Below, piece after piece: positions 5,697-6,580 of a DNA stretch of 40,128 nt; the first letter of the stretch is position 1; every line of letters starts with the position of its first letter. The notes under the pieces were generated by a model. The model ran no database searches, was not told where the DNA came from, and saw only the letters and a program-made list of their open reading frames with translations. A program made the translations under genes and the position numbers. Source of the DNA: Escherichia phage mEp506; sequence record PV340542. One strand, 5' to 3'.

Positions 5697-6122
5697 TTAT
5701 TTTCTAGATGATGTTGGGGACCAAGGTAACGTTATAGTATCTAACACTGTGTTTTTGAACATATTTTCAAAAACTGTTTTTGTACATACATATACATAAT
5801 TTTCAAAAAACCAAGCATTTTCATTATAAAAATCCTCAGTTACTTCTTCATCGAGGTCACACTCAAATGTTAGTGTCAAGGTAGCCTCTGCCTTGAACAA
5901 TACATCCTCACCATCATCAAAATCTTTTTTATCGCGAGGGAAACCAGTTATCGATGGCTTAACTTCAATAAAGAGCCAATTTCCATCTTCATCTTTTTGA
6001 GGAACAACGTGATGCTCAGAAAATTTTAAGCTATATTTTCCGCCTTCAGAATTATCACTGTCGTCGATAAAAAGGGAAGAACCCTCGAGATCAAATCCCT
6101 TAAAGCGAATTTTATCAAGCAT
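5697..6122 (-). CDS. SecB-like candidate chaperone (141 aa); third gene of the HicAB operon
   Basis: Start ATG overlaps the hicB stop (TGATG). Strand/helix pattern (KIRFKGFDLEG; WLFIEVKPSITGF; VLFKAEATLTLTFECD; AWFFENYVYVCTKTVFENMF; LDTITLPW) resembles E. coli SecB by eye. Functional call is tentative. Confidence 0.45.
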   Translation of the reverse strand: MLDKIRFKGFDLEGSSLFIDDSDNSEGGKYSLKFSEHHVVPQKDEDGNWLFIEVKPSITGFPRDKKDFDDGEDVLFKAEATLTLTFECDLDEEVTEDFYNENAWFFENYVYVCTKTVFENMFKNTVLDTITLPWSPTSSRK

Positions 6123-6580
6123 CAATGTGGCACTCCGTTGTCTACTGAAACTTCCCAATAGGTCTCTTCTGTACGTCTACGGGATGAGAAGAAAGTAACT
6201 TCTCTAACATCCCTCGGTTTTTCAAAGTGGTAGTGAACCTCTTTTTTCCCATTAACTGACTCACTGACAGCCTGTTTTACATAATCGTTTAAAGTCATAT
6301 TCTTAGCTTTAGCAGCTAAATATGCTTTTTTATGCAGGGATTCACCTATCCGGATGTTAAACGAACCACTCATTGTCTTATCTGGAGATTTTCCTATCTC
6401 TTCACAAGTGGAGAGGTAATCGTCCACGGCCTCCTCAAAGGCTGCACGGAGTTCTGCAACCGTTGCACCCTCATAAGTGACGAGATCATTTATACATTCG
6501 AGTTTTCCATGCATCACCCCATCTTCAAATGAAATGCTGGAGCTACCATAGTAACCTTTGTATTTCATCAAGTTATTCAT
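6122..6580 (-). CDS. hicB: HicB-family antitoxin with about 45-aa C-terminal extension
   Basis: N-terminal MKYKGYYGSSSISFEDGVMHGKLECINDLVTYEGATVAELRAAFEEAVDDYL and SGSFNIRIGESLHKKAYLAAKAKNMTLNDYVKQAV are typical of HicB; start overlaps the hicA stop. Confidence 0.8.
   Translation of the reverse strand: MNNLMKYKGYYGSSSISFEDGVMHGKLECINDLVTYEGATVAELRAAFEEAVDDYLSTCEEIGKSPDKTMSGSFNIRIGESLHKKAYLAAKAKNMTLNDYVKQAVSESVNGKKEVHYHFEKPRDVREVTFFSSRRRTEETYWEVSVDNGVPH

Follow-up and report, generated by a model that had tools for sequence, protein, structure and literature searches.

Why does the HicB antitoxin of a lambdoid phage continue far beyond its DNA-binding domain, and what would such a tail be for? 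The DNA examined here, called the window, is the whole 40,128-nucleotide stretch of Escherichia phage mEp506 (PV340542). Its minus strand encodes hicA, hicB and a third gene, hicC, which are co-oriented, tightly packed and arranged in the order toxin, antitoxin, chaperone. A first-pass annotation made from the letters alone proposed that HicB runs on for about 45 residues after its DNA-binding region, that this extension is rich in aromatic residues, and that it could be the chaperone addiction (ChAD) region of a toxin-antitoxin-chaperone (TAC) system. On sequence and structure-model evidence, hicA-hicB-hicC is probably a tripartite TAC module with HicB residues 110-152 as its ChAD region. The tail was found only where a SecB-shaped third gene follows, and it is therefore most likely the handle for the dependence of HicB on a chaperone.

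TACs consist of a HigBA, MqsRA or HicAB pair together with a SecB-like chaperone, and the ChAD of the antitoxin confers aggregation and chaperone dependence (PMC5105189; PMC3581621). ChADs are C-terminal modules of variable sequence; those tested are 126-141 bp long, and they can be transferred to other antitoxins (PMC5105189).

The extent of the HicB tail was determined from the reading frame, from domain matches and from a predicted structure. The hicB open reading frame (ORF) occupies 6122-6595 on the minus strand (157 aa) and contains in-frame ATG codons at 6595, 6580 and 6568. Homologues keep the start MxNLMKYKG. HicB was therefore numbered from the ATG at 6580 (MNNLMKYKG), which is most likely the start on this comparison and gives a protein of 152 aa. 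Translated in reverse complement, 6122-6259 gives exactly SVNGKKEVHYHFEKPRDVREVTFFSSRRRTEETYWEVSVDNGVPH and then the stop codon; this reading begins SVNGKKEVHYHF and ends VPH before the stop. The ribbon-helix-helix (RHH) family PF05534 of Pfam matches HicB with E 1.5e-18, and the match ends at residue 109 of the 157-aa ORF. The HicB family profile aligns with solved RHH proteins (ORF56, CopG, omega, Arc and Mnt) only to the end of the RHH, and in an AlphaFold2 (AF2) model the last helix ends at residue 106 of the 148-aa form. Together these three boundaries leave ~42-43 residues beyond the DNA-binding domain.

The AF2 model, whose alignment contained 60 tailed homologues, has a β-β-β-α N-terminal domain and two RHH helices with a predicted local distance difference test score (pLDDT) of about 70-89. 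The tail is predicted to be disordered, with pLDDT <50 and no secondary structure over residues 116-148 of the 148-aa form. The best Foldseek matches of the folded part were HicB of B. pseudomallei (6g26) and HicB of E. coli (6hpb), with probabilities of 0.96-1.00. By length, the 120 best HicB homologues form one group of 108-125 aa and another of 148-170 aa. After alignment the short proteins end 0-13 residues past the RHH while the long ones carry ~43 more. The annotated continuation thus measures ~42-43 residues by the Pfam match, the alignment with PDB structures and the AF2 model. Comparison with canonical HicB lengths identified it as a real extension: ordinary relatives of the RHH type stop 0-23 residues past that domain, and typical HicB proteins have no equivalent C-terminus.

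Directly after the RHH the tails share the pattern [KR][KNR]-E-φ-H-φ-H-φ, where φ is a hydrophobic residue; in the window it reads K112-K-E-V-H-Y-H-F119. The glutamate is present in 73/83 tails and the φ positions are 90-98% hydrophobic. H-x-H was found in 86/99 long tails vs 1/113 short tails. As read from its residues, the φ-H-φ-H-φ segment has the pattern of an amphipathic β-strand. Two more positions are conserved. F130, 11 residues past the motif, lies in a column that is 69% aromatic and 82% hydrophobic among 83 tails. W142, a further 12 residues on, lies in a column with W in 59/83 and F in 16/83 tails (92% aromatic). The terminal residues are H or HDA in 83/99 long tails; histidine makes up 9.7% of tail residues, and H-x-H is often H-x-H-x-H. 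The tail is translated and under purifying selection. Measured against the two closest relatives that are not synonymously saturated, dN/dS was 0.19 and 0.02 for the tail and 0.02 and 0.01 for the core.

HicC was modeled with AF2 at a pLDDT of 92.3 and a predicted TM score of 0.84. The model has four long strands and then a long helix, with helices at residues 96-101 and 103-122 and coil over residues 123-141. The top 19 PDB matches returned by Foldseek were all SecB. The best was 5mtw, the toxin-antitoxin (TA)-associated SecB of M. tuberculosis with a HigA1 ChAD peptide, with a TM score of 0.72-0.74 at 12-14% identity. The model thus gives HicC a SecB fold, with the TA-associated SecB of M. 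tuberculosis as its nearest match. Sequence databases were far less informative, and the relation to SecB emerged from the fold comparison alone. The PHROGs match was to a family of unknown function only, NCBIfam and PADLOC searches with HicC gave nothing, and PDB sequence searches with the single HicC and with a 53-sequence profile gave no match. A word-indexed search found 12 HicC relatives. With a profile searched exhaustively, 60 cluster representatives matched at E up to 1e-3. Of these, 51 are 130-155 aa, and the others are either shorter fragments or giant repeat proteins that align over short stretches. The giant proteins were P0143 (3615 aa), P0167 (1962 aa), P0171, P0181, P0190 and P0191. 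They match through many short repeated stretches, for example 11 matching HicC residues 2-37, and are probably repeat or low-complexity matches.

The distribution of the tail was compared with that of hicC. A hicB scan using one genome per species returned 80 loci. Three of them (L002, L003 and L004) encode a HicB tail of 44-46 aa with the His motif directly after the RHH, and these are the only loci of the 80 with hicC. In all three the HicC-family gene overlaps or abuts the hicB stop. At most 23 residues follow the RHH in 74 of the other 77 genomic loci, and the remaining three have unrelated tails, two hydrophobic and one Lys-rich. The tail type therefore occurs with hicC in 3/3 loci vs 0/77 (Fisher p = 1/82,160, computed by hand). 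Viral contigs agreed: in 41/41 with a HicC relative (26-100% identity), hicA is followed by a hicB whose tail is 37-51 aa and then by hicC, the stop and start codons overlapping. For two further long-tail HicB proteins without the strict H-x-H, the downstream gene likewise belongs to the HicC family (E 5e-19 and 2e-28). The first comes from wastewater and other environmental metagenome contigs, and its cluster includes a Kiritimatiellia metagenome-assembled genome. The second (E 2e-28) is from Aeromonas caviae and has an 86-aa tail, twice the usual length. The Aeromonas caviae hicABC (L128:1724-3004 and L129) is located between an antirepressor gene and baseplate genes, in a different prophage type.

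A separate class of HicB tail was observed in Bacteroidota (P0083, P0086, P0089, P0093, P0094, P0096, P0100, P0119, P0121, P0122 and P0132; loci L020:2329-2862 and L033:2489-2911). In this class SKPPDTRTTNF follows the RHH, then ~18 hydrophobic residues (...PALxAGFLL), and no hicC follows the gene. The sequence resembles a C-terminal membrane anchor, which suggests membrane-tethered HicB antitoxins.

One apparent tail-less relative was also found. Enterobacter kobei JAMGGV010000051.1 (L124:3001-3401; P0023, 114 aa) has a hicB that is 92-96% identical over the core, depending on the alignment. The gene is cut exactly at the RHH/tail boundary by an insertion sequence (IS) with an ISEhe3-like transposase, and the contig ends inside the IS. 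P0023 was rejected as a natural two-component tail-less variant, the IS being inserted at the start of the tail. The allele fits a tail-less HicB acting without HicC, as a single, anecdotal case.

These results were compared with characterized systems. The closest is Mmet-TAC of Methylomonas methanica MC09 (HicA Metme_2813, HicB Metme_2812 and SecB-TA), an experimentally validated HicAB-type TAC (Bordes et al. 2016, PMC5105189). It resembles hicABC in TA family, gene order and a C-terminal ChAD of ~42 codons (126 bp) on an RHH-type HicB. Its ChAD, decoded from published primers, runs from LEARNSS... to ...LEKQYA and lacks the K-E-φ-H-φ-H-φ motif and terminal His of the hicABC tail. The Mmet chaperone is recognized as a SecB homologue by sequence (PMC3581621), whereas HicC has no detectable SecB sequence similarity. 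In HigB1-HigA1-SecB-TA of M. tuberculosis (Rv1955-Rv1957), a crystal structure of SecB-TA with the ChAD peptide is available (5mtw; Guillet et al. 2019, PMC6377645). There the folded domain of the antitoxin is immediately followed by the core of the ChAD, 104-EVPTWHRLSSYRG-116, which binds via W108, R110 and Y114 (PMC6377645). This system differs from hicABC in belonging to the HigBA family, in its motifs, in the low identity of the chaperone given above, and in a ChAD that ends in a Val-Ala ClpXP degron.

HigBAC from E. coli NT1F31 is a prophage-borne TAC and senses lambda's tail protein gpV, which competes for the chaperone (Mets et al. 2024, bioRxiv 10.1101/2024.02.24.581848). Its ChAD is disordered with regularly spaced conserved aromatics, and an AlphaFold-Multimer model supported by mutagenesis and isothermal titration calorimetry places those aromatics in SecB-TA pockets and adds strands to the SecB sheet (bioRxiv 10.1101/2024.02.24.581848). 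Like hicABC it occupies the slot behind cI in a lambdoid prophage, and its ChAD lacks a ClpXP-type C-terminus. Unlike hicABC it pairs HigB with HigA, and its ChAD is 96 aa with anchors ~30 residues apart, compared with 43 aa and anchors 11-12 apart. The two-component HicAB systems of E. coli K-12, B. pseudomallei (6g26) and Y. pestis (HicA3B3, 4p78) share the HicA_toxin and HicB Pfam domains with hicABC but have no third gene.

The ChAD assignment made by the first-pass annotation therefore gains support from the SecB-fold partner, from the co-occurrence of tail and hicC in genomes and viral contigs, and from a tail that directly follows the RHH with ChAD-like length, predicted disorder and conserved aromatic/hydrophobic anchors. 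Purifying selection on the tail and the conserved coupling of hicB to hicC point the same way, as does the pace of divergence: among 33 non-redundant operons the tail changes as fast as HicC, with a mean pairwise identity of 30% in the tail and 34% in HicC, while the HicB core keeps 65% and HicA 58%. With gene order and genome slot added, hicABC matches the description of a TAC in these respects. As to class, the system is probably an uncharacterized HicAB-type TAC, a known class, with a divergent SecB-fold chaperone and a well-defined putative ChAD motif. One database record already recognizes it: GenBank PV340539.1, a 2025 re-annotation of mEp234, names the products HicA toxin, HicB antitoxin and HicC chaperone.

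Several results weigh against a TAC with a tail-borne ChAD. With E values up to 1 allowed, HicC had no Pfam match, and the SecB profile PF02556 matched none of its 53 aligned relatives. An hhalign comparison of HicC with E. coli SecB gave a probability of 0.13, which is not significant. The HicC model shows no second C-terminal helix, α2 of the full SecB architecture, so the protein was regarded as a shortened SecB-like fold. The tail ends in -VPH and not in an Ala-Ala or Val-Ala ClpXP degron, as the antitoxins of CmdTAC and M. tuberculosis do. We know of no counterpart of the H-x-H motif and the terminal His among characterized ChADs. Literature searches yielded no paper on the hicABC system. 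Co-evolution was examined in the 33 non-redundant operons by partial Mantel tests. With the core controlled for, tail divergence correlated with HicC divergence at r = 0.50 (p = 0.0005); the reciprocal test, of core against HicC, gave r = 0.53. Since the tail-HicC correlation is no stronger than the core-HicC correlation, tail-specific co-evolution is not demonstrated.

The compositional test also gave no aromatic enrichment of the tail, either in the HicB of the window or in 83 non-redundant tails. F+Y+W account for 6/43 (14%) of the tail residues in the window vs 9.5% elsewhere in HicB (Fisher p = 0.56; binomial p = 0.14 against 8.2%), and for 10.7% of residues in the 83 tails vs 9.0% in the cores. 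The description of the tail as aromatic-rich thus did not hold as a statement about composition. In the alignments, the distinctive signal of the tail is position-specific aromatic/hydrophobic conservation together with histidine content.

Taking hicABC as a TAC, a mechanism can be proposed from sequence, models and analogy, in which the tail would be bound by HicC through its anchors and would thereby make HicB chaperone-dependent. HicB would dimerize through its RHH and bind HicA through its N-terminal domain. The disordered tail, prone to aggregation or degradation, would leave HicB unable to neutralize HicA alone. A HicC oligomer would capture two HicB tails, keeping HicB soluble and HicA inhibited. 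The V-H-Y-H-F strand may extend the SecB sheet or fill the groove of a SecB-like tetramer, and F130 and W142 may serve as pocket anchors in HicC. When HicC is titrated away, HicB would be lost by aggregation or degradation and HicA would be freed to arrest growth. By analogy with HigBAC, an infecting phage could supply the titrating agent, in the form of an unfolded structural protein. The operon of a lysogen would be transcribed together with cI and could act as a defense against a superinfecting phage.

Other explanations of the tail were considered. The tail could dock HicC without destabilizing HicB, HicC being a sensor or adaptor subunit of a HicA-HicB-HicC complex, so that there is tethering without addiction. 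Co-occurrence and the SecB fold do show a partnership and not its direction or purpose, and the missing degron, the shortness of HicC relative to SecB and the missing second helix of its model would all be accommodated. Every TAC tested, including the HicAB type, nevertheless has a chaperone dependence imposed by the extension (PMC5105189). The tail also holds the strongest aggregation peak of HicB, VTFFS, which contains F130 (this peak is given low weight), and survival of the IS-cut E. kobei allele, a single case, fits a tail-less HicB that is independent of HicC. We consider tethering without addiction unlikely. It is quite improbable that the tail acts independently of HicC, whether as a His-based metal or pH element, as a modulator of operator binding by the RHH, or as an extra segment that neutralizes HicA. 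The histidine content, the conserved H-x-H and the terminal His speak for such a role; H-x-H patterns resemble metal-binding motifs, and many type II antitoxins have a disordered C-terminus that wraps the toxin. In solved HicAB complexes, however, it is the N-terminal domain of HicB that binds HicA. HicB relatives that lack the tail are still paired with HicA, which makes the tail dispensable for neutralization in the family, and restriction of this tail type to hicC loci would be left unexplained.

A tail with no function as protein has hardly any likelihood. It would be a spacer, retained only for the ribosome-binding site and start codon of hicC at its 3' end. GGAG and TGATG do lie in the last four codons of hicB, and purine-rich codons (K/E/G/R) are kept there across loci. 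The hicC signals constrain only the last four or five tail codons, or ~15 nt, whereas the motif, F130 and W142 lie 30-125 nt upstream. Moreover, dN/dS is far below 1 across the whole tail, and tail length stays within 37-51 aa across loci where HicC identity drops to 26%.

The features of the locus are collected in Table 1. The overlap between hicA and hicB is 8 nt and that between hicB and hicC is 1 nt, as a TGATG stop/start, with the GGAG Shine-Dalgarno sequence for hicC inside the last hicB codons. Most related loci keep a T(G/A)ATG overlap as well as a purine-rich Shine-Dalgarno sequence. The ORF list also gave a hicC variant with a TTG start at 6158 (153 aa, 36-nt overlap with the tail). 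All hicC homologues begin MLxKI. In the window this start is the ATG at 6122, and the 141-aa HicC is accordingly the real form.

Table 1. Coordinates of the hicABC operon, its flanks and the parts of the HicB tail in the window.
Feature	Position	Strand	Basis
cI-type prophage repressor	7242..7946	-	ORF; same strand as hicABC, upstream
hicA toxin gene, 84 aa	6573..6827	-	Pfam PF07927 and PHROG 8887
hicB antitoxin gene, 152 aa	6122..6580	-	Most likely start MNNLMKYKG; Pfam, AF2 fold
HicB folded part, residues 1-109	6254..6580	-	β-β-β-α HicB domain then RHH; PF05534, PDB RHH matches, AF2
HicB C-terminal tail N110-H152, 43 aa, proposed ChAD	6125..6253	-	Translation, low pLDDT, none in short homologues
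Motif K112-K-E-V-H-Y-H-F119	6224..6247	-	Conservation over tails
F130, second conserved aromatic/hydrophobic anchor	6191..6193	-	Alignment column of 83 tails
W142, third conserved aromatic anchor	6155..6157	-	Alignment column of 83 tails
C-terminal H152, conserved last residue	6125..6127	-	99 long tails; nearly invariant in alignment
Translational-coupling junction hicB/hicC	6120..6136	-	GGAG Shine-Dalgarno 6133-6136; TGATG 6120-6124; read from sequence
hicC, 141 aa, SecB-fold protein (by model), proposed dedicated chaperone	5697..6122	-	
Intrinsic terminator Timm, closes the cI-hicABC transcription unit	5670..5691	-	Terminator scan; annotated Timm in EF120460.1

The toxin assignment of HicA was made with Pfam PF07927 HicA_toxin, a weak match (E 1.2e-7, 32.1 bits vs a cut-off of 27), and with PHROG 8887 'toxin' (E 2.7e-34). 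In B. pseudomallei HicA, the His within the canonical G-S-H motif has a catalytic role. In the alignment of 33 operons, HicA of the hicABC family has GS-[G/K/R]-RKF where the canonical protein has GSH, and the window has GSGRKF. Both GS-x-RKF and, further on, H-x-PHP are invariant.

Compared with the lambdoid phages mEp234 and HK106, the region shows 99.1% identity; prophages of five E. coli genomes match it at 99.8-99.9%, and that of a sixth at 99.1%. EF120460.1, an immunity-region record from 2007, has the operon between cI and Timm, upstream of oL/pL and N, and the mEp234 records give the order cI, hicA-hicB-third gene, Timm terminator. In lambda, rexAB sits between cI and Timm and is co-transcribed with the repressor in lysogens; the RexAB proteins and their mechanism are unrelated to those of hicABC. 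Within the immunity region of an mEp234/HK106-like lambdoid phage, hicABC thus forms an additional gene cassette that takes the rexAB slot behind cI. The upstream neighbor on the same strand was a repressor with a helix-turn-helix (HTH) or HTH+S24 in 10/10 sampled related loci. Across the viral contigs (L082-L122), hicABC was observed behind many unrelated repressors, both S24-type cI of several immunity types and short HTH-only proteins. L082 and L083 have a HicC 100% identical to that of the window and a different repressor, so the cassette moves as a unit between immunity regions. In the window, the cI stop and the hicA start are separated by a gap of 414 nt (6828-7241) that contains no clear gene. 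Consensus scans of this gap gave no convincing promoter on the operon strand and no operator-like inverted repeat.

A more far-reaching proposal is speculative and, in our judgment, doubtful. HicC might be a separate, shortened SecB-fold lineage dedicated to HicAB and unrecognizable by sequence, reading a distinct ChAD code made up of K-E-φ-H-φ-H-φ, F, W and a C-terminal His, in which the His residues could make binding sensitive to pH or metal. The module might then serve abortive-infection defense of mEp234/HK106-type lysogens, triggered when an unfolded structural protein of the incoming phage competes for HicC, and would represent a TAC branch missed by surveys with SecB profiles.

TACs are a recently recognized way for prophages to sense incoming phages, in which the chaperone is titrated and the toxin released. 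The finding adds an example and a motif to this class and no new principle. Because the HicC family cannot be found with the Pfam SecB profile, profile-based censuses of TACs probably undercount them. This locus places a probable HicAB-type TAC in mEp234 and HK106, classical lambdoid phages that are amenable to genetics, and its putative ChAD, compact at 43 aa and with three or four sharply conserved positions, would for that reason be convenient for studying how SecB-like proteins recognize addiction signals.

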